A stretch of DNA of 48,264 nucleotides, from NCBI GenBank assembly GCA_039795875.1, contig JBDKKY010000003.1, positions 1 through 48,264 on the forward strand. Direction: 5' to 3'. A program made the translations under genes and the position numbers. Source of the stretch: Candidatus Parcubacteria bacterium (lineage in GTDB: Bacteria; Patescibacteriota; Minisyncoccia; Phycocordibacterales; CAIZLB01). Under the pieces are notes generated by a model. That model did not search any database. It was given only the letters and a program-made list of their open reading frames with translations, and was not told the DNA's origin. Shown one piece after another: positions 12,176 to 47,552 of the stretch. How positions within the stretch are numbered: position 1 is the stretch's first letter; each line of letters opens with the position of its first letter.

Positions 12176-12203
12176 TTGACATTTTGTAAAAAATACGCAC
12201 AAT
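12176..12203 (+). promoter_or_regulatory. sigma70-like promoter of orphan 12288
   Basis: TTGACA-16 nt-CACAAT, followed by a structured leader. Confidence 0.55.
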
Positions 12204-12287
12204 AATAAGGGCACAGAAACCCTTTAGGATTTCGTGCTCGGGACCGATGTCTCGAGTGCGATTTTCCTTTTCAGCAAAGAAAGAACT

Positions 12288-13331
12288 ATGAAAATACTCA
12301 GATTCATCGCAACAGCTATTCTGCTGCTTGCCGGATGCCCCAATACGCGGGCGGAGAAAGTCGAGATGGTGCTTGCGCCATCTGATACCGATACCTATCT
12401 AACTCTCATCGAAGATGCTACGGGTAACGACAAAAAAGTGAAATGTCCGACGGCCGTCCACAAGGACAGTCTAAAGGTCCTCGCTCGTCGTACCGTTGCG
12501 GTCGTACTGGACGTACGCAAGTATACGGTGTGGGTTGAGGATTTCTATTTCGTTGGCAGCCTGGAGGAAATGCATGTTGCCATCGCGGCACGTGACAATC
12601 CTGCACGGCCGATCCCTCTCACAGGAGAAGAACTGCAGGTGGTGGGTTCCGACCCAGCACTTCCTCGCTCTGCTCCCGTGATAGAGACGGATCCGCTGCC
12701 AAAGCCGTTGAAAACTGTGCCTCCTAATCCGCACACCGCCGGCACGGTAAAAATCAAACCTCCGGATGTTGTCGTTGTGTCTCCTTCTGAAATTTGGCCA
12801 GTTCCTCCTAGGGACATGACCAAAGAACAGATAGACGCGTTGCCAAGAGAGAGGAAGGTCACCGCTCCGGACGGAAAAACTATCCCATTCGATCTGATGG
12901 TGGTGCAGGCAGCGAATATCGCTGCCGAGCAGAAGATCTACCGGCTGGAGGAAGCACAATCAGTACTCAGTAAAGAGAATGCTGGTTTTGCCACTCGCAT
13001 CAGCGATTTGCAAAACGATCTCGAAGCAGCGAACAAAACACATGAAGAGTTTAAGCAGCAGCAGGAGACAGAGAAGTTGAATCTAACTGCCGAACTAGCC
13101 ACTGCGAGACGTATTCATACTGAGGAGATCACACAACTCAATCGTGAGAAGGAGGGACTGAAAAATAAGAATGGCCTGTATCTCGTTGGTGGTGGTGTTG
13201 TTGCTTTGGTTGCTCTATTGGCTGCGGTACTAGCTTCCCGAGGTTATCACCGAGAGATTGTCCGTCTGCGGTCACTGCCTTCGGGCGGAGCTGTACGCTC
13301 GCGTGGCAACTTGCCTCCTCCTCGTCCCTAA
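12288..13331 (+). CDS. Hypothetical exported/membrane-anchored protein (signal or lipobox LAGC, Pro-rich linker, coiled coil, C-terminal TM)
   Basis: ORF track and composition. Visibly GC-richer than flanking genes. Confidence 0.75.
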   Translation: MKILRFIATAILLLAGCPNTRAEKVEMVLAPSDTDTYLTLIEDATGNDKKVKCPTAVHKDSLKVLARRTVAVVLDVRKYTVWVEDFYFVGSLEEMHVAIAARDNPARPIPLTGEELQVVGSDPALPRSAPVIETDPLPKPLKTVPPNPHTAGTVKIKPPDVVVVSPSEIWPVPPRDMTKEQIDALPRERKVTAPDGKTIPFDLMVVQAANIAAEQKIYRLEEAQSVLSKENAGFATRISDLQNDLEAANKTHEEFKQQQETEKLNLTAELATARRIHTEEITQLNREKEGLKNKNGLYLVGGGVVALVALLAAVLASRGYHREIVRLRSLPSGGAVRSRGNLPPPRP

Positions 13332-13415
13332 CCCTCTCCGGATGGCAAAGAACCAGTGCGGCCAATACCTGTTGTCAGTGTCACCTCCAAACAATCCTGA
13401 CAACCCTCACAATCT

Positions 13416-13494
13416 TTCACGCCTCTGTATTTCCTCTTGGTGAAGAGATGTTACAGAGCCTCCGTTGCCTTACGAGGCTAACGTGATGCGTGAA
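13416..13494 (+). ncRNA. Candidate structured RNA (three-way junction), function unknown
   Basis: Nested complementarity: TTCACGC/GCGTGAA, CTCTGTA/TACAGAG, CTCTT/AAGAG, CGTTGCCT-TACG-AGGC(T)AACG. Confidence 0.4.
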
Positions 13495-13530
13495 TGCTGA
13501 ATCAAACAGTATATAAAATAAAAATCACAA

Positions 13531-13570
13531 TACGTAAGTAGTCACCGCTACTTACGTGTTTTTTATTTTT
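13531..13570 (+). terminator. Intrinsic terminator (A-tract upstream, probably bidirectional)
   Basis: ACGTAAGTAG-tcaccg-CTACTTACGT followed by T-rich tract. Confidence 0.8.
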
Positions 13571-13630
13571 CATTTCGTCTTCATTTAAAAATTTTTTCAT
13601 CATCAATGAAATAAAAAATGTGAAAAATAT

Positions 13631-13639
13631 TTATCCACA
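13631..13639 (+). promoter_or_regulatory. DnaA box
   Basis: Perfect TTATCCACA 20 nt upstream of a -35 element. Confidence 0.55.
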
Positions 13640-13659
13640 TAAAATTTGTTGAAAAATGT

Positions 13660-13688
13660 TTGCATCAAAACTTTTTTTGCGTGATAAT
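13660..13688 (+). promoter_or_regulatory. sigma70-like promoter of the small basic peptide gene
   Basis: TTGCAT-17 nt-GATAAT preceded by A/T-rich UP-like DNA. Confidence 0.6.
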
Positions 13689-13812
13689 TAAGTTACGTGT
13701 TAATGAGGTGTTTGTCGAACATCAACATGACACGGTTGATTACTTTCTTTTCATGAATTTTTTTCAGAAAAAAGAAAGAGCTCTTTCTAAAAATAATTTT
13801 TAAAACAAAACA

Positions 13813-13893
13813 ATGGCAGCAAAGAAAAAGGCTAAAAAAGTTGCAAAAAAGGCAGCTAAAAAAGCTAAGAAAAAAACTTCTAAGAGACGATAA
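13813..13893 (+). CDS. 26-aa Lys/Ala-rich histone-H1-like peptide MAAKKKAKKVAKKAAKKAKKKTSKRR
   Basis: Below ORF-track cutoff. A-rich start context (AAAACAAAACAATG), own promoter and terminator. Confidence 0.75.
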   Translation: MAAKKKAKKVAKKAAKKAKKKTSKRR

Positions 13894-13916
13894 TCTCTTC
13901 AGGAGCCCACTTAAGC

Positions 13917-13950
13917 AAAACACGTTAATCCGCAAGGACTAACGTGTTTT
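13917..13950 (+). terminator. Intrinsic terminator after the small peptide gene
   Basis: AAAACACGTTAaTCC-GCAA-GGAcTAACGTGTTTT hairpin with GNRA loop. Confidence 0.8.
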
Positions 13951-13975
13951 GTGTTTATATGCTATATATACAGAT

Positions 13976-16309
13976 ATGTCATTTTTCAATATGTTCGGTT
14001 CGCCGATAAAGAAATACCAGAAAAAAGTCAATGAAATCAATGCTCTAGAGGCCGAACTGGCCGCCTTGTCAGATGCTGAGCTAAAAGAAAAGTCTTTAAA
14101 ATTGAAGGCTGAAGTTGCTGCGGCTATGAAGGGAATAGAGAAGGATAAAAATGCTATCAATACTGTCTTGACGCCCCATTTGGCAATGGCTTTTGCTTTG
14201 ACTCGAGAGTCAGCAAAACGGACATTAAACCAACGACACTATGATGTGCAACTTATCGGTGGAATGGTTTTGAATGATGGAAATGTGGCAGAAATGAAAA
14301 CTGGAGAAGGAAAAACGCAGATGGCAACTCTGCCTACATACTTAAATGCGCTCACCGGACTTGGTGTGCACGTGGTAACGGTAAACGATTATCTGTCACG
14401 ACGTGATGCTGCTTGGATGGGTCAAGTGTATTTTGCTCTCGGATTGTCGACTTCTGTGATTACCCAAGAGCAGGCCTATATGTACGACCCTACTCATGTG
14501 ACAAGTGAAGTAGATAAGAAAGAAGATGAACTGGGTAGCTTCAAAGTCGGATATGAATTCCTAAAACCTTGCACAAAACAAGAAGCATATGCGGCTGACA
14601 TTACCTATGGAACAAACTCAGCCTTCGGCTTCGACTACTTGTTCGATAATATCAGCATGTATATCCGAGATGTTCGACAGCGAGCACCGTATTTTGCCAT
14701 TATTGACGAAGCAGACTCTATTCTTATCGACGAATCTCGGACGCCGTTGATCATATCTCAGCCGGCTCAAGAATCAGATGAGATGTATAAGCAATTCTCT
14801 AAAATCGTCCGTGGTATGAAGCGAGATGAACACTATACTCTCGATGAAAAGTTCCGTTCTATCATTATTACTGACGAGGGTATTACGTATGCCGAGAAGA
14901 TGTTAGGGGTTAAAGATTTGTATAATACGCAAAATATCCAGCTTGTGCACCACTTAGAAACTGCGGTCAAGGCGCAGGCTATGTATCAAAAAGATGTTGA
15001 TTATCTAGTTAAAGACAATGAAGTAATCATTGTGGATGTTTCTACTGGTCGTTTGCAACCAGGACGGCGATGGTCAGAAGGAATTCACCAAGCCATCGAG
15101 GCCAAAGAAGGTGTAAAGATTCAGCGTGAGAGTAAAACGGCAGCTTCTATTACATATCAAAACTTCTTTAGACTCTATACTAAGCTGGCGGGCATGACAG
15201 GGACCGGTATGACGTCGCGCGAAGAGTTTAACAAAGTGTATGGACTCGATGTACTAGAGATTCCCACTCATAAACCCATCGCCCGAAAAGATTTACATGA
15301 TCTTATTTTCCTTACAGAGTTGGGGAAATTCAAAGCTATCGCCAAGAAGATCAAAGAGTTGAGTCAAAAAGGTCAGCCTGTACTTGTTGGTACTGTGTCT
15401 ATTGAAAAAAACCAATTGTTATCTGAGTATCTCAAGGTTGCTGGAGTACAACATACTATATTGAACGCTAAACCAGAGTTCGCAGAGCGAGAAGGAGAGA
15501 CAGTCGCTCAAGCTGGTAAAAAAGGTGCAGTTACTATCGCTACCAACATGGCCGGACGAGGGGTGGATATTAAACTCGGTGGTATCCCAAGTACTCAAGA
15601 GCAAGCTGATGAGATCAGAGCTCTAGGTGGTTTATATGTTATCGGTACAGAACGACACGACGCGCGACGTATAGACAATCAGCTGCGAGGTCGTTCCGGT
15701 CGACAAGGCGATCCAGGTGAAACACAGTTCTATGTTTCTCTAGAAGATAATATGATGCGGATTTTTGCTAATAATACTATGCTCAAGAACTTCATGAGCA
15801 AGATGAAATTGGCCGATGACGAGGCTATCCAACATTCTCTCGTATCGCGAGCCCTTGAATCAGCCCAAAAGAAGATCGAAGGATTTCATTTTGATAGTCG
15901 AAAACAAGTATTAGAATACGATAATGTATTGAATCAACAACGACAAAGTATCTATCAGCGTCGTCGAGCTATGCTTATGGCTGAAGGGGATGTGCTGAAA
16001 GGTATTGTAGACCCCAAGACTACTTCACCAGAGGCTCAAACTCTGAAGGCTAAGCTAGGTGATGAGGCCTTCTATAAGACAGCACAAAGCCTGTGGTTGC
16101 AAATCAATGACTATTTCTGGATGAATCACTTGGATCATATGGACCACCTACGTATGAGCGTAGGATTACGAGGTGTTGGACAACGAGACCCATTGGTAGA
16201 GTATAAGAGAGAAGGACTCGGGATGTTTAAAGACTTGGAAGCCAAAGTAGAGGAAGAGTTTGTTCGTGCAATAAATCATCTGCAGGTTAAGGAGCCTACC
16301 GTTGCCTAA
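13976..16309 (+). CDS. secA: Preprotein translocase ATPase SecA (compact, 777 aa)
   Basis: MKTGEGKT, HVVTVNDYL, IIDEADSILIDE, TNMAGRGVDI, QLRGRSGRQGDPG. Confidence 0.97.
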   Translation: MSFFNMFGSPIKKYQKKVNEINALEAELAALSDAELKEKSLKLKAEVAAAMKGIEKDKNAINTVLTPHLAMAFALTRESAKRTLNQRHYDVQLIGGMVLNDGNVAEMKTGEGKTQMATLPTYLNALTGLGVHVVTVNDYLSRRDAAWMGQVYFALGLSTSVITQEQAYMYDPTHVTSEVDKKEDELGSFKVGYEFLKPCTKQEAYAADITYGTNSAFGFDYLFDNISMYIRDVRQRAPYFAIIDEADSILIDESRTPLIISQPAQESDEMYKQFSKIVRGMKRDEHYTLDEKFRSIIITDEGITYAEKMLGVKDLYNTQNIQLVHHLETAVKAQAMYQKDVDYLVKDNEVIIVDVSTGRLQPGRRWSEGIHQAIEAKEGVKIQRESKTAASITYQNFFRLYTKLAGMTGTGMTSREEFNKVYGLDVLEIPTHKPIARKDLHDLIFLTELGKFKAIAKKIKELSQKGQPVLVGTVSIEKNQLLSEYLKVAGVQHTILNAKPEFAEREGETVAQAGKKGAVTIATNMAGRGVDIKLGGIPSTQEQADEIRALGGLYVIGTERHDARRIDNQLRGRSGRQGDPGETQFYVSLEDNMMRIFANNTMLKNFMSKMKLADDEAIQHSLVSRALESAQKKIEGFHFDSRKQVLEYDNVLNQQRQSIYQRRRAMLMAEGDVLKGIVDPKTTSPEAQTLKAKLGDEAFYKTAQSLWLQINDYFWMNHLDHMDHLRMSVGLRGVGQRDPLVEYKREGLGMFKDLEAKVEEEFVRAINHLQVKEPTVA

Positions 16310-16347
16310 CTCTGGCGCTCTTGCGCCGTGAGAGTTATACTAGAGTC

Positions 16348-17388
16348 ATGCAAAATGTATCCAGAGCGAGAAATATATTTTTTATTGTCCTGTTGATAAT
16401 ATTTGGTGTGTTGTCTTTTAGCGTGTTGTCAAAATTTCTTATTGTTCTAGCACTGGCTTATATATGTGCCTTGCTCGTCTTACCTTTACAGAAGAGGCTT
16501 CAGGGCTGGCTTGAGAGGAGAAAGGGTTTCAAGAGGGCGGCACCAGCACTTGCTTCCACTATTACCCTGATATTGCTGGTAGTGTTAATTATCACCCCGT
16601 TCAGTCTCATGCTTGGGAAGATTTTCACTGATGCCCAAGGTTTTTACGTTAAAGTGACAGAAGGTGGTACAGGCGCTCTCTCAGCTCGTATTGAAAATGC
16701 GGTTCAACCATATTTTCCAAATGTTGATATTAAGATTAATGAAATAGCACAAGGAATATCCGGTTTCGTAGTCAGCAATATTGGATCTTTTTTCTCCAGC
16801 ACTTTTGATATTGTTTTGAAATTATTCTTATTCTTGATCGCCTTGTTCTACTTCTTGAAAGACAGAACTCATTTTGCTACTTTGTACGCACGTATAACGC
16901 CCCTTAGTGATAAAGACAATGATCGAATCTTTACTTCTATCCGAACAGCTGCCCGTTCTATCATGATTGGATCATTGGTTGTAGCCTTATGTCAGGGAAT
17001 CGTGACGGGTATTGGTTTTGCCATATTCGGAGTACCTAACCCATTTTTCTGGGGAGCAGTTGCAGGCATGTTTGCTCTAGTACCGGCTGTAGGGCCAGCG
17101 CTGATCTGGATTCCGGCGGTTATTTATCTATATGTGACGGGGGATCCTGGTAGTATTGCTTGGATTGGTCAATTGATTTGGGGAGTTGTTGCTGTAGGGT
17201 TGATTGATAATATCTTGGGACCACTGGTGATCAACAAAGGCATATCGATTCATCCTCTGTTTATTTTGCTTTCAGTGATCGGAGGTATCGCAATGTTTGG
17301 TCCAGAAGGATTTTTGTTTGGACCTCTGGTTTTGAGTATTTTTGTGGCGATTATTGAGGCTTGGAAAGTGCGGGAGAGTGGGGTATAG
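16348..17388 (+). CDS. AI-2E (PerM) family transporter
   Basis: Polytopic membrane protein; GVPNP, IDNILGP, IHPLFILLSVIGG, FGPEGFLFGP. Confidence 0.88.
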   Translation: MQNVSRARNIFFIVLLIIFGVLSFSVLSKFLIVLALAYICALLVLPLQKRLQGWLERRKGFKRAAPALASTITLILLVVLIITPFSLMLGKIFTDAQGFYVKVTEGGTGALSARIENAVQPYFPNVDIKINEIAQGISGFVVSNIGSFFSSTFDIVLKLFLFLIALFYFLKDRTHFATLYARITPLSDKDNDRIFTSIRTAARSIMIGSLVVALCQGIVTGIGFAIFGVPNPFFWGAVAGMFALVPAVGPALIWIPAVIYLYVTGDPGSIAWIGQLIWGVVAVGLIDNILGPLVINKGISIHPLFILLSVIGGIAMFGPEGFLFGPLVLSIFVAIIEAWKVRESGV

Positions 17389-17409
17389 TTTTGTGGTATA
17401 CTCGGGTGT

Positions 17410-18438
17410 ATGAAAAAGATTCCCTATCTCAGCCCAGTTATCGCCAAAGCCGTCGATCGTATCGTCAAGAAAGGCAAAGTAAACCTAGTAACCCATAGTA
17501 GTAATTTTCATGCTGATGATATTTGTGCGACAGCGACTTTAAAACAATTTTTTGCCTTAGCCTTTCCAAAAATAAAAATAACTTCTACTCGGAGTATTGA
17601 CCCAAAAGTGATGGCTGCTGCTGATATCTTATATGATAATGGAGCGGTGTATGATCCTAAAACACTTCGTTTTGACCATCATCAAACGGGCGGGGCGGGT
17701 ATGAGAGAAAATGGCGTAAAATATTCGTCTTTTGGCTTGGTTTGGAAATACTTTGGAGTTAGTTTATGTGCCTTACACACACAGGCCACAACAGGGAAGC
17801 TGCCCTCTAAGAAGATCGCAGAACACCAAGCGGCAATCATCGAGAAAAAAGTGGTATTCCATATAGATGCTATGGATAATGGACAGATGACATATGAGCC
17901 GCTGATTGATGGTTGTGACGTACTTACACTGGATAAGTTTTTTGAAATGAGTAAGATCCGTGTCGGGGGTACACAAGAGAACATTAAGCAGGTAAATAAG
18001 AATTTTGATTCCCAATTTCAGAAAATGGTAAAGCTATTTGGACAAATGCTTTTGACCATCTTGAGTTATGCTGTTACCAAAGAAGTGGACGAGACTCTGG
18101 GCGAAAAGATGTATGCCAAAGCTAAAGATAAAAGAGTAATTATCTGTGATAGATTTGTCTATTTTAATTATTCAAAATATCCAGAGCCTCTGCTGGTGGT
18201 GTACCCGGATCCCCGAGGTGGATGGGCGGCAAAAAATGTGCGATTGGATGAAGCTTTGTATAAGGGACGTTTTTATTTTCCGGAAAGCTGGAGGGGAAAA
18301 ACTAATGGAGAGTTGATTCAGATCACCGGAATTCCAGGAGCACGATTTTGTCACAATGCTGGATTTATGATCGCGGCTGATACCAAAGAACAAGTGCTGA
18401 AGATGATCGATTTGGCTTTCAAAACAGAACGTATCTAG
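17410..18438 (+). CDS. MYG1 family protein (putative exonuclease)
   Basis: THSSNFHADD, FDHHQ, SSFGLVW, IDAMDNG, FPESWRG, FCHNAGF motifs. Confidence 0.9.
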   Translation: MKKIPYLSPVIAKAVDRIVKKGKVNLVTHSSNFHADDICATATLKQFFALAFPKIKITSTRSIDPKVMAAADILYDNGAVYDPKTLRFDHHQTGGAGMRENGVKYSSFGLVWKYFGVSLCALHTQATTGKLPSKKIAEHQAAIIEKKVVFHIDAMDNGQMTYEPLIDGCDVLTLDKFFEMSKIRVGGTQENIKQVNKNFDSQFQKMVKLFGQMLLTILSYAVTKEVDETLGEKMYAKAKDKRVIICDRFVYFNYSKYPEPLLVVYPDPRGGWAAKNVRLDEALYKGRFYFPESWRGKTNGELIQITGIPGARFCHNAGFMIAADTKEQVLKMIDLAFKTERI

Positions 18439-18680
18439 TATGCCATGTATGTCTTATCTGTTCGGAGACCAACATATAAAATCTGATTCACACCATCCCT
18501 TCTTTCAAAGATGATACGGACCCTTTTCTTTCTGACGCGATAAATGTGCTGCTGACCTTTAATTTTTTGAATATTCAGCCCCGTAAGCCTATTGGTTACT
18601 ATTAAGACCATTAACTCATGAGTAATCAAAGTGTTTGGGGGTGATAATTTATCGATGTTTTTCTGAATTTGATTGACCAT
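18435..18680 (-). CDS. RelE/ParE-superfamily toxin
   Basis: 81 aa, basic, IQKIKG...YRVRKKRVRIIF. Overlaps the upstream antitoxin ORF. Confidence 0.7.
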   Translation of the reverse strand: MVNQIQKNIDKLSPPNTLITHELMVLIVTNRLTGLNIQKIKGQQHIYRVRKKRVRIIFERRDGVNQILYVGLRTDKTYMAY

Positions 18681-18930
18681 GCTTTTTTAGTTTTCTACGT
18701 GCTATGTTTTCATCGAATAATTTCAATACCTCTTCGGCTGGTATACCCCCTTTTCGATATTGAGTAAAATCAATAATTGTCTCCCAAGTACTCTCTACGG
18801 GGGGAGTAATCTTAAAGAGAGCTTTGGATCGTTTCATCACGATCAGCTCTTCATCCTCATCTTTTTCCATAAGTTTGACGTATTTTTCTACGTCCTCTCT
18901 GAAAGCTTTTAAGTTTACTATTTTAGTCAT
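18649..18930 (-). CDS. Phd/YefM-like antitoxin
   Basis: MTKIVNLKAFREDVEKYV...ELIVMKRSKALFKITP Phd-like N-terminus. First gene of a two-gene operon. Confidence 0.65.
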   Translation of the reverse strand: MTKIVNLKAFREDVEKYVKLMEKDEDEELIVMKRSKALFKITPPVESTWETIIDFTQYRKGGIPAEEVLKLFDENIARRKLKKHGQSNSEKHR

Positions 18931-18935
18931 ATTTG

Positions 18936-18965
18936 AAAGATTATCAAAAGATAATCTTTTGTCAA
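18936..18965 (-). promoter_or_regulatory. TA promoter with palindromic operator
   Basis: TTGACA (18965-18960) and TG-a-TAATCT. Perfect palindrome AAAGATTATC-aaaa-GATAATCTTT (18936-18959) covers the spacer and -10. Confidence 0.8.
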
Positions 18966-19102
18966 TGACAGGAGGGCGTTCTCTCGTGGTGTGATGGGTC
19001 ATATAGCAAATTTATCATAAGGGAGTTGTGCAAAACCGTAAGAAACTCTAAAGAAAAAGTAAATATATTCGGATCCTAGTGGGTGTGATACTATATACCC
19101 AT

Positions 19103-19675
19103 ATGCAACCAAAAGTACTGATAATCACAGCGCATCCTAGCCCAAAAGGATTTACTCATAAGATTGCGGATGCATTTGCTCAGGGTGCTCGAGAGGGTGG
19201 AAAGGTCGTGGAGATTATTGATCTGTATAAAACTAATTTAAAACAAGATTTTCTGACATTTGAAGAAAAATCAGATATGGCCAAAGCCGATCCGATTCGG
19301 AGTGCTATCCAAAGTAAGATTCAAGGCGCCAGTGAGTTGGTATTTGTTCACCCTCTATGGTGGATGGGGACACCGGCTATCATGAAGAACTTTATTGATA
19401 TCAATATCAGTTCTCAATTTGCTTTTAGATATGTAAAAGGTTGGCCATTAGGTTTGTTGAAGGGTAAAAAGGGCCATGTTTTCATTACCTGTGATGGACG
19501 AATGTGGTTATACTGGCTGATGGCGATTCCTTTTAGAACTATTTGGAATCTGGGAACTTTACGATTTTGTGGGATTAAGCCGGTTACATTTAAAGTGTTG
19601 CATGAAAAATATAGACGAACTGAAGAATATTTAAATAATTTCTTAGTAAAAGTTAAAGCGATTGGGAAGAGGTAA
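19103..19675 (+). CDS. Flavodoxin-fold NAD(P)H-dependent (quinone) oxidoreductase
   Basis: AHPSPKGF, HPLWWMGTPAIMKNFID, GLLKGKK. Confidence 0.88.
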   Translation: MQPKVLIITAHPSPKGFTHKIADAFAQGAREGGKVVEIIDLYKTNLKQDFLTFEEKSDMAKADPIRSAIQSKIQGASELVFVHPLWWMGTPAIMKNFIDINISSQFAFRYVKGWPLGLLKGKKGHVFITCDGRMWLYWLMAIPFRTIWNLGTLRFCGIKPVTFKVLHEKYRRTEEYLNNFLVKVKAIGKR

Positions 19676-19685
19676 ATCGAGAAAT

Positions 19686-19724
19686 AAAACGACCGCCGGA
19701 CGCACTATGTGCGCCGGCGGTTTT
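19686..19724. terminator. Bidirectional intrinsic terminator
   Basis: ACCGCCGG(a)CGCAC-tat-GTGCGCCGGCGGT flanked by A and T tracts, between convergent genes. Confidence 0.8.
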
Positions 19725-19732
19725 GGGTTGGG

Positions 19733-20101
19733 TTATCTCCAATCACCACGATCGGGAGGGGTGATGTTGAGGTATTCGAGGGCCCTTTTCATGATCCGGA
19801 CGAGGTCAGTGCGCCCGGTTTCTTGATGAAGAGCGCGAATCTGATTGCCGGTCAGAGCCTCAAACTCAAACAAGGCTCTGATAGACCTGGGTCTGGTAAC
19901 TCCTTGTGTGGCCAGGAAGTTTCTTTGTACGAGTGTGGCGACGTCTGCGTCGGTAAGCAGACAGAACTTGCCGGCAGTTGGAAGTTCTTTGTAGAATCCT
20001 TGGTTGGTCCACACAACTTTGTGGGGGAAAAGGACTCGACGGGTGGTTAGGACTGTGGCGGGGCGGGGAGGTGGCTGTATATATCTATGAGGGGCAGGCA
20101 T
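19733..20101 (-). CDS. Hypothetical protein (orphan cassette)
   Basis: 122-aa ORF with own TTGACC-17-TAGGCT promoter (20171-20143) and terminator. Confidence 0.65.
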   Translation of the reverse strand: MPAPHRYIQPPPRPATVLTTRRVLFPHKVVWTNQGFYKELPTAGKFCLLTDADVATLVQRNFLATQGVTRPRSIRALFEFEALTGNQIRALHQETGRTDLVRIMKRALEYLNITPPDRGDWR

Positions 20102-20172
20102 GGCGTGGTATGGGTGAATGGTGAAAGGTCGGGGACAAGTTCAGCCTACCTCAACTAGAATATAAGGTCAAT

Positions 20173-20209
20173 AAAAACCACCCCAGACACGTTTTACCGT
20201 GTAAGGGGT
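20173..20209 (-). terminator. Intrinsic terminator abutting the next promoter's -35
   Basis: Minus strand ACCCC-tt-ACACG...CGTGT-ct-GGGGT then GGTTTTT. Confidence 0.65.
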
Positions 20210-20212
20210 CTG

Positions 20213-20533
20213 TTATTCAAGCTCGTAGAGCCAGGTTGTGTCGGCGGAGAATAGGCCTTTGCCAGGATAGATTGTTTGGACACCAACAAGACCTTTTGAG
20301 CCTAGAACGAGGCGGTACATCCAGCTGTTTTTCGTTGGTACATAAACTAGACTTGTTCCAAAAGTAGGCAAGGGCAGGCGAAACAGGTTGCGGGCCAGTA
20401 CTTGCCATTTTGGGGTGCAGTAATGAATCAACGCTCTGGTATTGATATCTTTTCTGGTCAAGCGACGAGTGAGACGAAGGTCTCGAGGAGTGAAAAGTAT
20501 GAACTGACACTCCCTTGTATCAAATGTGTCCAT
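20213..20533 (-). CDS. Hypothetical protein (orphan cassette)
   Basis: 106-aa ORF. Extended -10 TG-a-TATCTT near 20569-20561 and C-rich leader. Confidence 0.6.
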   Translation of the reverse strand: MDTFDTRECQFILFTPRDLRLTRRLTRKDINTRALIHYCTPKWQVLARNLFRLPLPTFGTSLVYVPTKNSWMYRLVLGSKGLVGVQTIYPGKGLFSADTTWLYELE

Positions 20534-20584
20534 GGTGCGGGAGTGGTTGGAGTTAAAAGCAAGATATCATATCTCTGAAAATAT

Positions 20585-20623
20585 AAAAGCCCTCCGAAGC
20601 GCATCGGGTGCGCCACGGAGGGT
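20585..20623 (-). terminator. Intrinsic terminator
   Basis: CCCTCCG...GCGCA/TGCGC...CGGAGGG hairpin with T tract on the minus strand. Confidence 0.7.
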
Positions 20624-20632
20624 TCGGGTGCT

Positions 20633-21073
20633 TTATTCTGCAAATACAGTTCGGAGGTAGTTCGGGTGGTTCAGCGGCTCCACTGTTCCGTAACCTTTAG
20701 CGTGCACAGCTTTTTCCATCTGATACGTTCCAGTTGGATTCAGACCTAGAAAGGCAACATCACAAACTCCGTTAAAAAGGCTGGGGTTCAGGGTTGTTCC
20801 GAAGATGGGGAGCACTCCGGCTTGTTCGGCCAACTCATTGACCCTATGTCGAAGCATCTGGGTGGTCAGGTTGAGTTTGAATTGACGCAATAGTTCCGGA
20901 GAAGTCAGGATGGCTTGGCCATTCTTTGTTCTTAAAGCCTCTTTTTCGATCAGCTCGGCGTTTATGCCTAGTCGTTGCCGTGCGGCCAAGAGCAGGCTAG
21001 GTTGACGAGGCAACTCTTTGTGTCGGAGACAGATTTCAAGCAGGGTAGGGGCAGGTTCAGAAGGTGCGGACAT
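20633..21073 (-). CDS. Hypothetical protein (orphan cassette)
   Basis: ORF with TTGACT-18-CATAAT promoter (21129-21100). ATG 21073 preferred over TTG 21094. Confidence 0.65.
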   Translation of the reverse strand: MSAPSEPAPTLLEICLRHKELPRQPSLLLAARQRLGINAELIEKEALRTKNGQAILTSPELLRQFKLNLTTQMLRHRVNELAEQAGVLPIFGTTLNPSLFNGVCDVAFLGLNPTGTYQMEKAVHAKGYGTVEPLNHPNYLRTVFAE

Positions 21074-21168
21074 ATAAAGTGGGGTTGATTTCAATATACA
21101 TTATGCCACAGATACCTCTATATAGTCAAACCAGCCCCTTTATCCACCCCCCAACCTCCGAAAAACCC

Positions 21169-21197
21169 TTGCATTGCAGCCTAAAACATGATACAGT
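21169..21197 (+). promoter_or_regulatory. rpoBC promoter
   Basis: TTGCAT-17 nt-TACAGT with extended TG, about 100-nt leader. Confidence 0.6.
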
Positions 21198-21305
21198 CTC
21201 TGTAGCGTAAATCGATTGAGTACCTCCAGACTTTTATCGCTTTTATTAATTCCTAAATTCTAATATTTCCATCACCTGAACACGTCAGGGGATATTCTAT
21301 ATATT

Positions 21306-24300
21306 ATGTTAAAAAAGAAACACTTCTCACGTTTTCGTGAGCCGCTTGCGCCATTACCAAACTTAGTGGAAGGACAGATTCAGTCATACCGAGTCTTGCT
21401 GGAGAGAGGGTTAACAGAAGTATTCTCAGAATTTTCATCAATAAAAGACTATACAGAGAAAAAATTTGAATTCCGATTTGAAGGAATGCGTCTTGATCGT
21501 CCAAAATTTGACGAATTCTACGCCAAAGAAAATAAAGTAAACTACGAAGCCACAATCAAGGCGACTATCAAGTTGATTAACAAAGTTACTGGTTCTGAAA
21601 AAGAACAGGAGCTTTTTATGGCTGATATTCCAATGATGACAGAGCACGGAACATTTATTATCAACGGTATTGAGCGATGTATTGTGCCACAGCTTGCCCG
21701 ATCTTTCGGAGCATTTTTCACATCATCAGAATCAAAAGGACGAATCTTCCTTGGAGCGAAGATTATTCCAAATCGAGGATCATGGATTGAGATCGATTCA
21801 GATCCAGACGGAGCTATCTATGTTCGAATGGACAAGAAGCGAAAATTCCCAGTCACAACATTGCTCCGAGCTCTTGGGGCCGTGACAGATTCAGATATTA
21901 AAGCGTTATTTAAAGGAAATGATCACGCAACTACATTTATTGAGCACACATTAGCCAAAGATCACACAAAAACTCCGGATGAGGCCTATGTTGAGATTTA
22001 CAAAAAGATGCGAGACGGAGAACTTGCTACAGCACAAAATGCTAAAGAATTTGTCGAGGGTTTGTTTAAACCAGATCGATATGACCTTTCACCTGTAGGA
22101 CGATTCCGATTCAACCAACGGTTTGGTAAAGATATGGACGTAAAAGCCTTGGCACGAACAACATTGAATATGGACGATTTTGTAACATTGATCGATCAGA
22201 TCTCTACACTTTCACATATTCCAGATGCCGAAGTTGACGATGTTGATCACCTTGGATCACGACGTGTTAAGTTCGTCGGTGAGCAGCTGCAACAAAAAGT
22301 TCGATTTGCGTTACTTCAGATCAAGAAAAACATTCAAAACCGAATGTCGACTATTGAAACTGATGTAAGTCAGCCTATGCAAATGATTTCTCCTCGACCC
22401 TTGCAGGCTCGAATCAAGGAATATTTTAGTACAAACCAATTGTCACAGTTCATGAGTCAGGAAAACATTTTGGCTGAACTAGAGCACTTGCGAACCGTTA
22501 CAGCTCTTGGACAAGGAGGTTTGACACGAGAACGAGCTGGAGTTGAAGTTCGAGACGTACACCCATCTCACTATGGTCGTGTTTGCCCTGTTCACACACC
22601 TGAAGGTCAAAACATCGGACTTGTATTGCACTTGTCAGCCTACGCTAAGATTAACCACTTCGGTATGATCGAAACACCATATGCGAAAGTTAAGAATGGT
22701 AAAATTACCAAAGAGGTTGTGTATCTAGATGCTCTACAAGAAGAAGGATTCAAGATTGCCCACGCCGCTATTGCGTATGAAAAAGACGGAACAATTACAG
22801 ATGATTTTGTAGAAGTTCGTCTAAAAGGAGACCCTATTGTGGTTCCAAAAAATGAGATCGATCTTATCGACGTTGCACCAGAACAACCTTTCTCTATTTC
22901 TACATCTATGATTCCGTTCGTGAACCACGACGATGCCAACCGATCTTTGATGGGTTCTGGTATGCAGAAACAAGCAACACCTTGTATCGTGCCTGAAGCG
23001 GCGTATGTTGCAACTGGTATTGAAGAGACTGCTGCTCGAGACACAGGACGAGTTATCATTGCGCCTGAAGACGGAGAGATCATACAAGTAGATGCAGCGT
23101 CTATCACCTTAAAAGGAAAGCGAGAGACCAAATTTAAACTAGCTATCTTTAACAAAACAAACCAGTTTACAGTATTCCATCAACGACCAACTGTATCTCT
23201 TGGAGAAAAAGTTAAACGAGGTGATGTTTTGGCAGATACATCAACATCAGTAGGTGGACAAACAGCACTTGGACAAAATATCCTGATTGCCTTCTTGGCA
23301 TGGAGTGGAGCAAACTACGAGGATGCCATTATCATCTCTGAGAACTTGGTAAAACAATCTAAATTTACATCTATCCACATCGAAGAGTTTGTCATCAACG
23401 TTCGAGATACAAAACTAGGACCTGAGGTCAACACTCACGATATTCCAAACGTATCTGAAGCAAAATTGAAAGACTTGGATGCTGAAGGTATCGTGCGAAT
23501 CGGTGCTGAAGTTCGACCGGGTGATATTCTTGTCGGAAAGATTACTCCAAAAACAGAAACCCAATTAACTCCAGAAGAGCGGTTGTTACGATCTATTTTC
23601 GGTGATCGAGCTCGAGATGTAAAAGATACATCAAAGCGTCTTGAAAATGGAAAGCGAGGACGAGTTATCGGTGTTAAAACATTCTCACGAGAGCGAGGCG
23701 ACAAACTAGAGTCAGGTATTATCAAGCGAATCTATATTGAAGTTGCGCTTCTTCGAAACGTATCTGTTGGAGATAAGCTTGCTGGACGACACGGAAACAA
23801 AGGAGTTATCTCACGAGTTCTTCCGGTTGAAGATATGCCATATATGGCTGACGGAACACCGGTGGATATGATCCTAACACCTCTTGGTGTGCCATCACGT
23901 ATGAACTTGGGACAGATTCTAGAGCTTCACTTGGGTCTTGCAGCTGCAAAGATGCAGTATCAAGCCATCGTTCCTGCCTTTATGGGACCAACAGCTGAAG
24001 AAGTACAAGATGAGTTAGAAAAAGCTGGATACAATCGATCAGGAAAAATGAAATTATTCGATGGACGAACAGGAGAGGCTTTTGCTCAAGACGTGTCTGT
24101 TGGATACATGTATATGCTTAAACTCCACCACATGGTTGAGGATAAGATCCACGCTCGTTCAACTGGACCATACTCTTTGATCACACAACAACCACTTGGA
24201 GGTAAAGCTCAAGGAGGAGGACAAAGATTTGGAGAAATGGAAGTGTGGGCACTTGCAGGTTACGGTGCCTCACATACATTGCGAGAAATGCTAACTATTA

Positions 24301-24593: not shown

Positions 24594-24632
24594 AAAATCC
24601 AACGCATCAAACTAAATAAAAAATAAAAATTT

Positions 24633-27600: not shown

Positions 27601-28373
27601 CAGCGGCTCTTGCCTCAGTAGAGGGAGTCGTTACAGCCGTAGTAGATAAGGGACATGAGAAAATCATCCGAGTTCTTCCAGATGTGCCAGTAAAGGCTAC
27701 TGCTAAGAAAGGTGCCGAGATCGAATACTCATTCCACCACGCTCGTATTCCAAACGTAAAAGTAGGACAAGCTGTCACAAAAGGACAAATCATGAGTGAT
27801 GGATCAGTCGATGTAGACATGTTGTACGAATACGCTGGTAAAGATGTTGCACAGGCGTATATCATCAGTGAAGTTAAAAAGATTTACGAGTTGCAAGGAG
27901 ATAACTTGTCTCGAAAACACATCGAAATCATCGTTCGAGAAATGTTTAACCGAGTACGAGTCACTAACAAGGCTGACAGTGAATTGTCAGAAGGAGATGT
28001 GATCGAGTCATTCGAATTCTTTATTACAAATGAGAAGCTTGAAGCCGCAGGTAAAATGCCACTTAAGGGTAAACAAGTAATCATGGGTACTATGGAAGCC
28101 TCATTGAATCGACAATCATTCTTGGCTGCTGCTTCATTTCAAAACACAAACCGAATCTTGGTAAACGCTGCTCTAAAAGGTCATCACGATCCACTATACG
28201 GTATTATGGAAAATACGCTGATTGGTCGGTTGATCCCAGTTGGTACCGGATTCCCGGGTAGTCAAAAACAATTGGCTATCGCTAAGATCCAGGCTGAGAT
28301 CGCTGCTGCTGATGAATTGAAATACCTAGATCAAGCAGAGGTGAGTACAATGAAGAGATTTGGAGATGAATAA
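24633..28373 (+). CDS. rpoC: DNA-directed RNA polymerase beta' subunit
   Basis: CYCGKY...CEKCG zinc site, [20 protein letters not shown]. Confidence 0.99.
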
Positions 28374-28393
28374 ACCCTCTTCGTTCCGATAGA

Positions 28394-28431: not shown

Positions 28432-28454
28432 ATTTGCTATGATATACTCCGTAC

Positions 28455-28919: not shown

Positions 28920-28925
28920 GAATTC

Positions 28926-29469: not shown

Positions 29470-29495
29470 CATTGTGACCCTTGAGGTTATGCAAT

Positions 29496-29530
29496 AAAAA
29501 AAAGAGCGTCGACGGTGAGGTCGAGCGCTC
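29496..29530 (-). terminator. Intrinsic terminator
   Basis: Minus strand GAGCG(c)TCGAC-ctcacc-GTCGACGCTC-TTTTTTTT. Confidence 0.8.
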
Positions 29531-29586
29531 TGTGATACAACTTAATTTTTGCGCAGGTATGTTGTAAACCGGCGGTAGGAGAGTGC

Positions 29587-30147
29587 CTATTTTGCTCCGC
29601 GCATCAGCATGTGTTCCAGTGCCTCATCGTTGGTCGGGGGAAGGTTTTCTACCCTCAGGATGAAGATGTCTGGGTCTTCGGTCCTTTTGATCATAAACAT
29701 CGGACTACCTCCTTCGGTAGCTCTGCCTTGATACAGGCCGAGGATCGCGTAACGCTCGTCGCCCAGGAAGGTCATGATCGCGTGGCGGACTTTCGGGCCG
29801 TCCCGTAGATCTGCCTCTGCGATGCGACCCATAGCTGCCTGAATGGCTGGGTGCTGTACCTCTTCGGGCTGATGAGGGACGGCTCCGTACACATAGTAGG
29901 AGTCATCTTTCTCGTCATAACGAAGGGTTACATCCTCGAGAAAGAGATAGGGCCGTTGCATAGCCCCGGACTCTTTCCGCTCCGTTGCCGAAGCAAAGAT
30001 GTTGAGTGCCGTTGCCCAGTCTGCCTCGTCGAACGTTTGTTGTCCGAAGAGTTGGATCTGGTGAAAGTCGGGACCGACGATGCGGTTTGGGAGTGATCTA
30101 ACGGTGTTTGGGAATGTTTTGGTTACGTGCAGCTTGGCTATCTGCAT
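29587..30147 (-). CDS. Hypothetical protein (orphan cassette; start uncertain)
   Basis: 186-aa GC-rich ORF with consensus promoter and terminator. Confidence 0.65.
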   Translation of the reverse strand: MQIAKLHVTKTFPNTVRSLPNRIVGPDFHQIQLFGQQTFDEADWATALNIFASATERKESGAMQRPYLFLEDVTLRYDEKDDSYYVYGAVPHQPEEVQHPAIQAAMGRIAEADLRDGPKVRHAIMTFLGDERYAILGLYQGRATEGGSPMFMIKRTEDPDIFILRVENLPPTNDEALEHMLMRGAK

Positions 30148-30218
30148 CTTTCAAGACTCATTAAGTGCTGAAAGATACAGATAGGGAACTGCGTAACCTG
30201 TAAAAGTACTATGAATAC

Positions 30219-30247
30219 ATTATATCATAGTTACTACCCGTTGTCAA
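30219..30247 (-). promoter_or_regulatory. Perfect consensus sigma70 promoter
   Basis: TTGACA-17 nt-TATAAT with extended TG. Confidence 0.85.
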
Positions 30248-30326: not shown

Positions 30327-30328
30327 GT

Positions 30329-34229: not shown

Positions 34230-34234
34230 CTAAG

Positions 34235-34270
34235 AAAAAAACCCGGCCATACTTTCGTACGGACGCGGGT
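34235..34270 (-). terminator. Imperfect intrinsic terminator
   Basis: CCCG...CGGG hairpin with T7 tract on the minus strand. Confidence 0.55.
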
Positions 34271-34300
34271 CGAGTGAGAAGAGACGGAAGATGTGTTGGT

Positions 34301-34693
34301 CTACTCCGGACACTCCTCGGTGAGCTGAGCAATAATTTGTTCGGCGACCAGATGCTCATCACCAGGTGTGATCCGGATAATGCGAGCGGTCTTCCGAGGG
34401 CCCACAACTCCTTCTCCAGGCGGTTCATCCCATAAGCTCACTTCCAGATGATGAATCTTGACGGTGTCGGTCTCATCTTGCTGGTGTCTGCCTACTAACA
34501 GGTGTACGCTCCAGGTGAGTATTGGTGAAGGAATCTCAGCGAGGTGTACCAGAAATGAGTGTACCCTCAAGTGGATCGCGTGCTGTTGCATGGCGAGAGT
34601 ACCAAACTCCATTGCTGATGGCTCGCGGAATTTGAATGTGTTGGCAAACCCGGGTGCGGCTTCGGTGATGTAATTGATAAGAACTGTGGTCAT
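34301..34693 (-). CDS. Hypothetical protein (orphan cassette)
   Basis: 130-aa GC-rich ORF. Promoter TTGACT-17-TATAAT at 34764-34736. Confidence 0.65.
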   Translation of the reverse strand: MTTVLINYITEAAPGFANTFKFREPSAMEFGTLAMQQHAIHLRVHSFLVHLAEIPSPILTWSVHLLVGRHQQDETDTVKIHHLEVSLWDEPPGEGVVGPRKTARIIRITPGDEHLVAEQIIAQLTEECPE

Positions 34694-34863
34694 TGGTTAG
34701 AGGGAAGATGTTGAAGGTTCAGGACGTATAAGCATATTATATCATATATAGAAGATACAGTCAAAGCAGTCATTTTACCCTCTGTATTCTTTTTTGTTAA
34801 ATTGTCCACAACATGCTTTAGCCTCGTGTAGTATCTTATACATGTGGGGTATATAATATTTAT

Positions 34864-46508: not shown

Positions 46509-46514
46509 TTCATG

Positions 46515-46550
46515 AAGTGGATAACTCAGAGGTTGTCCACTTTTGATTTT
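46515..46550 (+). terminator. Hairpin/terminator made of two inverted DnaA-box-like sequences
   Basis: AAGTGGATAAC-tcagag-GTTGTCCACTT then T-rich. Confidence 0.6.
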
Positions 46551-46660
46551 TGTGGTATATAATACCTGGGTGCAATTGAGCACCTTTTCACTTTCCCTCG
46601 GTAGGGAGGGTGGAATCTTTGAATACGAAACACCACAACTCCAAAAAACTATCTGTCTGT

Positions 46661-47419
46661 ATGCATCAAAAAAGATTGCAAACTATCGTTACCTCGTTAC
46701 TGTTGACCCACGGTGGTCTCGCTTGCTGTCTCGCTGGCCTCGAAGGCGGCGGCAAAAGTACTGCAGCCACCGCACTGAGTGAGGCCTGTCCTGACTTAGT
46801 CCGAGTGGTCTATGTCAGTAAGGCTTTGGCCACACACTGTGAATTCCTTGAGACTGGCCCCGGTCGTCATGGCCGTGCAACGAAAGCTCTCATCAGGGAA
46901 GTCCGTGCCAAAATGGAGGCCAGGGACAAGAACATTGATCCTCAGTTTCTGAAGGCCGCACTACACAGGGCTCTGATGGCTGTGATCGGCAAAGAAATGG
47001 GCGAAGGAGAAAGCCCTAACCTCTTTGTCCTTATTGACGGTTATCCCCGTCTCAAAGAACAGGCTGATGAGGCACCGGCTGTACTGGGGGGCTTCTTTCC
47101 CAACCACCCAGCTCTTATCCTCGAGGTCGGTTGTGATCAAGAAGAAGCGTTCAGGCGTGCCACAAGCCGTGGTGGTGATTGGAACAGTCCTTCAAACATC
47201 ACCCGTTCCCATCTCGAATTCAACCAACGTATGCCCGATGTCCGTTCGGCTGCTACTCGCTGGTCAGACCACATCATGATCTCCAGTGATGGTCCGCAGG
47301 ATGAAACCTTGGCCCAACTGGCGGACCGGTTGGAAGAGTATTCTGCCCGCATCGCCACTGGAGGGTTCAAAAAACCTGATCCGGCGCTGATGATTCAAGG
47401 CATTCTGGCTAACGTATAA
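46661..47419 (+). CDS. Divergent adenylate/NMP-kinase-like P-loop protein (cassette-like unit)
   Basis: GLEGGGKST P-loop and LIDGYPR motif. GC-rich, with own promoter (TATAAT 46558-46563) and terminator. Confidence 0.72.
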   Translation: MHQKRLQTIVTSLLLTHGGLACCLAGLEGGGKSTAATALSEACPDLVRVVYVSKALATHCEFLETGPGRHGRATKALIREVRAKMEARDKNIDPQFLKAALHRALMAVIGKEMGEGESPNLFVLIDGYPRLKEQADEAPAVLGGFFPNHPALILEVGCDQEEAFRRATSRGGDWNSPSNITRSHLEFNQRMPDVRSAATRWSDHIMISSDGPQDETLAQLADRLEEYSARIATGGFKKPDPALMIQGILANV

Positions 47420-47463
47420 CCGCCCTCATCACCAACCCAGCATTCCCACCCAAAAAACCAATA

Positions 47464-47519
47464 CCCGTGACGTCATCTCTTGTCCCCCAAAAGGACCCAT
47501 GACGTTACGGGGATTTTTT
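47464..47519 (+). terminator. Intrinsic terminator
   Basis: CCCGTGACGTCAT...ATGACGTTACGGG then T tract. Confidence 0.8.
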
Positions 47520-47525
47520 ATTGCA

Positions 47526-47552
47526 TCTCGTTGAAACGTAGTGTAAGCGGAT
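47526..47552 (+). repeat. 27-bp dispersed repeat copy 2 (followed by related hairpin CTCGCCGAAGCGGG at 47566-47579)
   Basis: TCTCGTTGAAACGTAGTGTAAGCGGAT, 21/27 identical to reverse complement of 29443-29469. Confidence 0.6.

Follow-up and report, generated by a model that had tools for sequence, protein, structure and literature searches.

Morons of bacteriophages are single coding regions that lie between their own promoter and a factor-independent terminator. As described in PMC4378225, they stand between genes that are adjacent in related genomes, their composition is unlike that of the adjacent genes, and their ends have no common recombinase target; the mechanism of acquisition is given there as unknown. 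Replacement flexible genomic islands, in the account of Lopez-Perez et al. 2014 (PMC4033161), are clusters of several genes that typically encode exposed structures and hold differing, barely alignable content at one position in related strains (>96% average nucleotide identity). Their borders show no mobile-element hallmarks. Exchange may plausibly run through homologous recombination in the flanking DNA, of which the signs would be synonymous changes that peak in the genes at the border, or one island that recurs unchanged in diverged backgrounds. Here we describe genes of a cellular chromosome that share features with both. The DNA that we analyzed, called the window below, is the entire contig JBDKKY010000003.1 of assembly GCA_039795875.1, from a Candidatus Parcubacteria bacterium (48,264 nucleotides [nt], forward strand). 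An original prediction, made from the sequence, had singled out seven GC-rich open reading frames (ORFs) in it as self-contained expression cassettes and proposed either a gene-capture system or strongly expressed, fast-evolving genes, perhaps for host interaction. We could confirm the observation and support part of the interpretation. The seven ORFs are probably members of a class, found across the genome, of moron-like accessory units that are autonomous, mostly consist of one gene and turn over at fixed intergenic sites of the chromosome.

The source genome (G000), a member of the candidate phyla radiation (CPR; Patescibacteria), consists of 736,798 bp in 38 contigs, of which the window is C3, with 42.3% GC and 94% completeness. 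A crude gene call, taking the longest ORFs of at least 60 amino acids (aa) from the first start codon, gave 832 ORFs. We excluded 20 that overlap ribosomal RNA (rRNA), transfer RNA (tRNA), transfer-messenger RNA (tmRNA) or RNase P RNA before any counts were made, leaving 812; such overlap is thereby rejected as the source of GC-rich ORFs. The GC content of the ORFs is bimodal genome-wide, with modes near 0.41 and 0.52. ORFs with a GC content of at least 0.47 were classed as GC-rich (137 of the 812) and those below 0.45 as core (646); 29 ORFs at 0.45 to 0.47 are in neither class. The 137 GC-rich ORFs fall into 101 islets, of which 72 hold one ORF, 22 hold two and 7 hold three, and their bodies amount to 76.8 kb, or 10.4% of the genome. 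Their surplus GC is mainly C on the sense strand (27.4%, versus 18.7% in the core; G is 24.9% versus 22.2%), GC skew is below zero in 72% of them versus 19% of core ORFs, and the composition of all three codon positions is shifted. Replication-strand skew was rejected as the cause, since the sense strand is C-rich in either orientation. Translational selection was also rejected, since rpoB/C and the ribosomal protein genes have a low GC content at third codon positions (GC3). Nor are the islets an assembly chimera: contigs built from the source run by a second assembler span islets and core with 0 differences and at equal depth. A second DNA run gave short diverged pieces of conserved genes, without coverage of the islets. 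The same kind of islets is present in assemblies of other species. In the sister species G007, 68 of 642 ORFs are at a GC content of at least 0.46, so that this genome is bimodal as well; the congeneric G005, with 14 of 726, barely is.

In the window, the seven ORFs (units 1 to 7, by position) have a GC content of 0.47 to 0.545 and a GC3 of 0.48 to 0.62. The other 36 long ORFs, not counting an antisense ORF at 19709-20050 that overlaps one of the seven, have 0.35 to 0.44 and 0.29 to 0.46, and the GC profile of the window peaks exactly at the seven. They were thus correctly described as GC-richer than their surroundings. They are also mutually dissimilar, as claimed: an all-versus-all blastp of the 832 crude ORFs found 1 similar pair among GC-rich ORFs and none among the seven. 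The layout attributed to them, a sigma70 promoter, a leader without a Shine-Dalgarno (SD) motif and a terminator of their own, can be recognized in all but one. A -35 box of the form TTGAC[A/C/T] is found in five; four of these pair with a -10 box of at least 4/6 match at 16 to 18 nt, and the fifth, TTGACC, pairs with TAGGCT at 17 nt. Altogether six of the seven have a credible promoter, and unit 3 has no convincing one. The three best sigma70-like sites in 12000-31000 are those upstream of units 5, 1 and 4, and the total number of such sites in that stretch (42) is not above shuffles (36.3 ± 6.5). The predicted leaders measure from 19 to about 95 nt; they contain little G and no SD motif. A hairpin followed by a T-run lies downstream of every unit, at most 120 nt away in six and about 230 nt away in one. 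The units do interrupt core neighborhoods, as was noted for uvrB and uvrA: their flanking genes are adjacent or nearly adjacent in relatives, and the ORF after unit 7 is the start of uvrA. Five of the seven are on the minus strand, against the majority, as reported; this did not extend to the class, in which 56 of 124 ORFs follow the local majority orientation, as expected at random, versus 448 of 594 core ORFs. The units are indifferent to the majority strand rather than opposed to it.

The same architecture recurs genome-wide, and more often than chance would have it. Intrinsic terminators are predicted within 120 nt of 74 of 127 GC-rich orphans, compared with 30 of 215 AT-rich orphans and 99 of 404 AT-rich conserved genes. 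For the GC-rich class as a whole the count is 78 of 134, against 129 of 619 for the rest and 17 of 133 for a strand-flipped control. Conversely, a leaderless-type TAnnnT -10 box precedes just 9 of 127 GC-rich orphans, versus 88 of 214 AT-rich orphans and 155 of 406 AT-rich conserved genes, and the -10 box of the best promoter ends 4 to 9 nt before the start in 5 of 102 GC-rich ORFs versus 143 of 491 others. TTGACA and TTGACT occur up to 100 nt upstream of 14% and 12% of GC-rich ORFs, versus 3% and 2%. The leaders have a composition of their own, with C at 28 to 45% and G at 7 to 19% over positions -22 to -1 of the class; in GC-rich orphans, C makes up 29% and G 14% of the 25 nt that precede the start, versus 16% and 14 to 15% in others. 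About 226 AT-rich orphans have the composition and layout of the core, so orphans are bimodal too. The unit layout therefore belongs to the GC-rich class and not to orphans in general, and low constraint is by itself not enough to turn a gene GC-rich. By these sequence measures the class is distinct both in composition and in its predicted layout, with a -35/-10 promoter, a G-poor leader of 20 to 95 nt and a strong intrinsic terminator.

Core starts show TAnnnT at -12 to -7 and T at -1, as upstream of 34864 and 21306 in the window, and an SD motif in 4%; a large share of core messages is probably leaderless. SD motifs in GC-rich leaders are at the chance level, 9%. The usual 16S rRNA tail after helix 45 is GGAUCACCUCCUU. 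In this genome the 16S rRNA (C1:27317-28858, minus strand) reads ...GUGGAUUUAUUC after helix 45, so that the tail is AU-rich and the CCUCC anti-SD core is missing. Since the 16S rRNA has no anti-SD, the absence of SD motifs is a property of the organism, not of the units, and it can no longer be counted as a special feature of their leaders. Loss of the anti-SD and SD-independent initiation are reportedly known in other bacteria.

We then compared the units with their counterparts in relatives, mainly G007 (568 kb used) and G005 (92% of the assembly). GC-rich ORFs seldom have recognizable relatives. A Pfam domain (E ≤0.001) was found in 20 of the 137, versus 86 of 137 length-matched AT-rich controls, and a homologue in G005 for 7 of 137, versus 78 of 137 controls and 420 of 646 core ORFs. 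Reciprocal best hits in G007 exist for 18 of 137 at a median identity of 50%, while 369 of 646 core ORFs have one at 79%; a distinct, self-contained and fast-evolving class of genes had been suspected, and these values bear it out. Among 5.8 billion proteins, three of the seven window ORFs (those of units 2, 4 and 6) match only themselves. Twenty-seven islets could be compared directly because, for each, the genes next to it on either side have orthologues together on a single G007 contig. Eleven of these sites are empty in G007; 8 hold homologues, 5 hold unrelated GC-rich ORFs, 1 holds an AT-rich ORF, and 2 are gaps without an ORF. The empty sites measure 8 to 278 bp, 7 of them less than 110 bp and the smallest 8 to 41 bp, with intact neighbors. 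The homologous occupants are mostly very diverged, six of them at 28 to 59% identity. At the gap between the flavodoxin gene and rpoB, unrelated ORFs are found in each of five species (G000, G007, G006, G005 and G017). Between species, then, units are present or absent, swapped for unrelated GC-rich genes, or kept as very diverged homologues at the same sites.

The annotated minority of the class is mainly concerned with nucleotide and NAD salvage (NTPase, cmk, thyA, DHFR, tmk, AAA_28, AAA_33, NUDIX and NAMPT), and PHROGs added two phosphohydrolases. One islet is instructive. ThyA is normally a slowly evolving enzyme. Here it is only 42% identical to the syntenic ThyA of the sister species, while RpoB is 95% identical, and the function of the thyA-DHFR-tmk islet is kept between the two genomes. 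The full islet, thyA-DHFR-(dCMP deaminase)-tmk-AAA_28, is syntenic (G000 C11:11848-16219, G007 C29:6976-11119), its genes are 35 to 47% identical, and it looks like a whole-module replacement. Membrane proteins are not prominent in the class: segments resembling transmembrane helices occur in 39% of GC-rich ORFs and in 40% of the comparison set, which gives no support to the suggested role in host interaction.

Most GC-rich ORFs are short and have no annotation, so we asked whether they are genes at all. In 84 short Pfam-less GC-rich ORFs, G is more frequent at the first than at the second codon position (G1-G2 +0.098, positive in 85%) and T more frequent at the second than at the first (T2-T1 +0.116, positive in 90%). 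The longest ORFs of shuffled sequences give +0.015 (53% positive) and +0.044 (71% positive). All 18 pairs of homologues shared with the sister species show a nonsynonymous divergence (pN) below the synonymous divergence (pS). Together with a kinase fold and a lipoprotein among the seven, described below, these signals make the GC-rich ORFs look protein-coding as a class.

Four other explanations have to be weighed against this reading. We see hardly any chance that the short islets are structured non-coding RNA genes or dead remnants whose ORFs are by-products of GC-rich, stop-poor sequence. In AT-rich genomes it is normal for stable RNAs to be GC-rich and to have a promoter and terminator of their own, and RNase P RNA is next door; between 8 and 70 of 1,000 shuffles reach the length of five short window ORFs; unit 2 has long ORFs on both strands; and two ORFs have poor models in the ESM Atlas, with a predicted local distance difference test (pLDDT) score of 0.35 and 0.45. 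Against these stand the codon periodicity of the class, which is far above that of shuffled ORFs, the uniform excess of pS over pN, the position of the terminators on the ORF strand, an Rfam search that finds RNase P RNA alone in the window, and two members with clear protein features. A dedicated capture or insertion system, integron-like or new, in which a trans-acting recombinase places promoter-ORF-terminator modules between genes, has only a little chance of being right. It would account for the uniform layout, the precise intergenic placement beside intact neighbors and the random orientation, and the genome does encode two recombinases, a large serine enzyme (C23) and a tyrosine enzyme (C6). 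The ends of the units do not bear it out. In 150-nt flanks of the 137 ORFs, blastn-short and k-mer enrichment gave scattered matches of 14 to 26 nt and one pair of 49 nt at 84%, with no motif common to the ends; enrichment is confined to TTGAC[AT] and T-runs. No paralogous modules are seen, the whole genome has no rve transposase, and no recombinase adjoins any islet of the window, where Pfam searches of 36 ORFs confirm the reported lack of integrases and transposases. Integron cassettes carry an attC site, are promoterless and are arrayed beside an integrase and a common promoter. The units share with them that they are small, mostly single-ORF, mutually unrelated accessory modules, many without an assigned function. 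Unlike cassettes, they have no attC-like shared site, no adjacent integrase (the lone tyrosine recombinase is on another contig) and no array; each has its own promoter and terminator, and they are dispersed over 101 places. They also lack the repeated ends, paralogues and rve transposase of transposons, insertion sequences and miniature inverted-repeat elements, and no target duplication is visible at the unit 6 junction relative to G007. The additive flexible islands of PMC4033161 differ as well, since those carry integrases or transposases. With no shared ends, no paralogues, no adjacent recombinase and some members that are ancient residents of their sites, a dedicated capture machine, one part of the original prediction, is not supported.

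The two remaining explanations concern where the composition comes from. Recent horizontal transfer from ordinary GC-richer bacteria outside the CPR, or from phages, with donor composition and signals retained, is improbable in our judgment. The distinct composition would fit such transfer, as would the canonical -35 boxes and the strong terminators, both lacking in the core, and the salvage genes of a typically mobile kind among the annotated members (thyA, DHFR, tmk, cmk, NAMPT, NUDIX). According to PMC12455944, horizontal gene transfer accounts for as much as 13% of genome length in Patescibacteria. SD-using donors, however, should have left SD motifs in the leaders, and these are at chance. 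The absence of a Pfam domain from 117 of 137 ORFs and of any relative among the 5.8 billion proteins for three of the seven also counts against ordinary donors. PHROGs matched 11 of 137 GC-rich ORFs, none of them structural, and no phage signature was found for the class; scans of viral contigs with three GC-rich proteins, a method that detects close relatives only, found none. GC3 moreover stays high despite saturated divergence. The other explanation is that the genes are residents that evolve very fast, with high C and GC maintained in place, either because selection acts on the mRNA (for stability, for little structure, or for codons suited to leadered SD-less messages) or because recombination-prone sites undergo a local GC-biased process. 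On this view, the sites found empty would have lost their gene, and the unrelated occupants would be homologues that have changed past recognition. We regard this as rather unlikely, yet much of the evidence for it weighs against the reading that we favor. The gene of unit 1, between wzy and secA, has homologues at the same site in G000, G006 and G005 with a GC3 of 0.51, 0.48 and 0.36, and the kinase gene of unit 7 stands beside uvrB in four species at 0.53, 0.46, 0.44 and 0.40, in both cases above the baseline of each genome. Some members are old residents of their sites, not insertions. Synonymous sites are saturated even with respect to G007 (median pS 0.74), and still the homologous G000/G007 pairs keep a GC3 of 0.55 and 0.47, versus 0.37 and 0.30 for the core, so that simple import of foreign DNA, now in the course of amelioration, is disfavored as an explanation of the composition. 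The shift of all three codon positions is as expected if composition drives amino acid content. Finally, grpE, a leaderless core gene whose identity follows relatedness and which was therefore inherited vertically, climbs stepwise in GC3 from 0.25 in G005 through 0.34 in G014 and 0.46 in G006 to 0.53 in G000, and this rise points to a process in place as well.

The pattern of turnover weighs against residence alone. Empty sites, unrelated occupants and the divergence of ThyA between sister species favor import. Seven of the 11 empty sites are shorter than 110 bp with intact neighbors, unit 5 is absent in both outgroups (G006 and G005), which favors gain, and the AT-rich orphans retain core composition. 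The grpE gene is leaderless and without the unit layout. Further points weigh against turnover of imported units, however. No donor was found: the best match of ThyA among 400 genomes of the order is at 53%, and neither the PHROGs search nor the viral scans pointed to a donor pool. For four or five of the short window ORFs, the coding evidence is at the level of the class only. The gene calls are crude, and expression, transcript ends and translation are predictions from sequence throughout.

The grpE gene (C10:23612-24211) has an AT-rich first 150 nt (GC3 0.30), a TACAAT that ends 6 nt before its ATG, and a normal neighbor, dnaK (0.33). The GC3 of secA rises from 0.27 in G005 and 0.28 in G006 to 0.39 in G000, and the mean of reciprocal-best-hit core genes is 0.30 in G007 and 0.37 in G000. 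In addition to the islets, composition has shifted across the lineage as a whole.

For moron-like units that turn over at fixed sites, we propose the following. With a promoter and a terminator of its own, a unit could be expressed, and kept insulated, at any landing place among the leaderless operons of the core. Since the leaders have no SD motifs, any donor pool should also be without SD-based initiation; units may come from, or be passed around in, a pool of genes that is confined to the lineage and already suited to SD-less translation, such as other (related) Patescibacteria or their mobile elements, and not ordinary SD-using bacteria. Turnover could proceed through illegitimate recombination or through exchange between homologous flanks, without a dedicated capture machine. 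Measured against the morons of PMC4378225, three of the four described features are found here: a single coding region between promoter and terminator, placement between genes adjacent in related genomes (the 11 of 27 empty sites in G007, all below 300 bp), and a composition unlike that of adjacent genes. The ends likewise have no common recombinase target. The units differ in that they sit in a cellular chromosome among housekeeping genes (rpoB/C, secA, uvrB/uvrA, mraZ-ftsI, mreB), not in a phage or prophage. They number about 100 and take up roughly 10% of the genome; their composition departs toward GC, not AT; they are leadered next to a leaderless core; and some persist at their site across species. 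With the replacement islands of PMC4033161 they share unrelated (5 of 27) or homologous, mostly very diverged (8 of 27) content at one position, and borders free of mobile-element hallmarks; they are mostly single small genes without an assigned function and without membrane enrichment, compared here between species with saturated synonymous sites. The lineage-restricted hypothetical fraction of Patescibacteria in PMC12455944 is of comparable size, and we found in that article neither a bimodal composition nor a separate layout of promoter, leader and terminator for the acquired genes; the word promoter does not occur in its main text. Full-text literature searches on leaderless and SD-less initiation in the CPR, and on bimodal GC and orphan genes, gave no account of CPR genomes in which bimodal gene composition goes with a separate expression layout.

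The units of the window are as follows. Unit 1 (12176..13566, plus strand) has the predicted promoter TTGACA(12176)-16-CACAAT, a leader of about 80 nt, an ORF at 12288-13331 (347 aa) and a terminator hairpin at 13529-13560 followed by a T-run. Within the leader, a 13-bp hairpin and then TTTTCCTTTT at 12232-12271 (plus strand) resemble a transcription attenuator, and a GC-rich 3′ untranslated stretch of about 200 nt (13332-13527) lies outside the ORF. The protein has a lipoprotein-type signal with an LAGC lipobox, a conserved N-terminal domain, a coiled coil and a C-terminal transmembrane segment, features common to four relatives. N-terminal domain homologues occupy the same site in G006 (33%) and G005 (26%); in G007 the gene is missing, and the site is a 433-bp AT-rich gap. 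None of 1,000 shuffles reaches the length of this ORF.

Units 2 to 4 lie side by side on the minus strand. Unit 2 (19683..20171) has TTGACC(20171-20166)-17-TAGGCT, a C-rich leader of about 35 nt (C at 19 of the last 40 positions), an ORF at 20101-19733 (122 aa) and a terminator hairpin at about 19720-19693, then a T-run; the antisense ORF at 19709-20050 (plus strand) is within it. The 122-aa ORF has positive coding periodicity, and 65 of 1,000 shuffles reach its length. Unit 3 (20173..20600) is the weakest: a C-rich stretch precedes its ORF at 20533-20213 (106 aa, GC 0.47), a terminator hairpin lies at about 20209-20179, followed by a T-run, and the G1-G2 periodicity of 0.000 is the weakest coding signal of the seven, with 31 of 1,000 shuffles reaching the length. 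Unit 4 (20585..21129) has TTGACT(21129)-18-CATAAT with a TG extension, a leader of about 19 nt, an ORF at 21073-20633 (146 aa) and a terminator hairpin at about 20621-20589 (-25 kcal/mol), then a T-run. Relatives of these three ORFs were sought in G007:C1, G006:C2 and the available G005 assembly, and unit 3 had no tblastn match in any of them.

Unit 5 (29495..30247, minus strand) has a perfect promoter, TTGACA(30247)-17-TATAAT, a leader of about 64 nt, an ORF at 30147-29587 (186 aa) and a terminator at about 29531-29501. It is directly downstream of the gene for RNase P RNA (class A; 30327-30704, minus strand; 110 bits, gathering score 100), which is a neighbor and not a member of the class. 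That gene ends in a 16-bp terminator-like hairpin at 30326-30291, and the perfect-consensus promoter of unit 5 begins 44 nt beyond it. The sole homologue of the unit 5 ORF, at 51 to 52% identity, is in the sister species (18189-18612 of G007:C1), split over two frames; it may be a pseudogene or an assembly error. Compared with it, pN is 0.289 and pS 0.763. At the site in G006 and G005 the ORF is absent. Unit 6 (34232..34764, minus strand) has TTGACT(34764)-17-TATAAT, a C-rich leader of about 35 nt (G at 3 of the last 40 positions), an ORF at 34693-34301 (130 aa) and a terminator hairpin at about 34271-34239, then a T-run. Its site shows a clean difference of 657 bp here versus 47 bp in G007, and its ORF has no match in 40 relatives. 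The ESM Atlas models of units 5 and 6 are those with pLDDT 0.35 and 0.45, respectively, and gave no feature matches; for two small singletons, such scores are not informative.

Unit 7 (46533..47524, plus strand) has a TG-extended -10 box (TATAAT at 46558-46563), a leader of about 95 nt, an ORF at 46661-47419 (252 aa; 46610 in the crude call) and a long terminator hairpin at 47465-47513, then a T-run. The motif (I/L)DG(F/Y)PR is a hallmark of the adenylate and nucleoside monophosphate (NMP) kinase family. In an alignment over four species, the Walker A and IDGYPR motifs of this protein are invariant. Its AlphaFold2 model has a pLDDT of 86.7, and the top Foldseek matches are adenylate and UMP-CMP kinases (probability 1.0; template modeling score 0.74 to 0.76 by target). 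It is below the curated cutoffs for Pfam ADK (19.3 bits versus 26.8) and TIGR01351 (20.2 bits versus 168). We therefore describe it as a divergent, NMP (adenylate/UMP-CMP) kinase-like P-loop protein and not as a called member of the family. Homologues next to uvrB are found in G007 (59 to 61%) and in G017 and G004 (29 to 32%), pN is 0.285 against a pS of 0.80, and 2 of 1,000 shuffles reach the ORF length. A contig scan with the kinase alignment returned three congeneric relatives and one weak short match (44% over about 40 residues, E 5e-5) in an unrelated metagenome-assembled genome. The G007 homologue (G007:C1, about 1650-1700) has a run of X in translation, from N in the DNA. A GC-rich block separates the unit 7 terminator from uvrA (47525-47600), where G007 has an extra 89-aa ORF with a GC of 0.57.

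Other function searches on the seven ORFs added little. Pfam gave only subthreshold matches to AAA_17/ADK and DUF1801, NCBIfam only subthreshold matches, PHROGs none, and PADLOC one weak coiled-coil match (E 0.004). The core genes around the units comprise an asnB-like gene, polysaccharide genes, secA, rpoB/rpoC, murJ, mscL, mreB, mraZ-rsmH-ftsI, pyk, radC, uvrB and the start of uvrA. RNase P RNA is the only Rfam match at the gathering score in the window, which has no tRNA or tmRNA. A 26-codon lysine-rich mini-ORF (MAAKKKAKK...; 13813-13893, plus strand), followed by a hairpin and a T-run, lies in the AT-rich spacer just upstream of secA.

A broader picture can be offered tentatively. The cell may hold two gene "grammars": an AT-rich, leaderless, operonic core, and about 100 C-rich, leadered, terminator-bounded single-gene units that turn over at fixed intergenic hot spots and whose composition is actively kept despite saturated synonymous sites. 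If this is true, there would be either a hidden GC-rich pool, extrachromosomal or pan-lineage, with its own expression rules that feeds moron-like acquisition, or a local GC-biased process that creeps into core genes such as grpE. The "dark" gene share of a tiny CPR genome splits cleanly in two, one half being marked by composition and layout, and accessory genes with that composition and their own promoter, leader and terminator are recognizable from sequence alone. This split connects three subjects that are mostly considered separately: an anti-SD lost in company with leaderless translation, genes that turn over without the machinery of mobile elements, and heterogeneous GC content. Should the layout be borne out, about 100 leadered, SD-less messages would exist alongside leaderless ones in one cell, which would be useful for studying how such ribosomes choose a start codon, and the units would be a chromosomal counterpart to phage morons.

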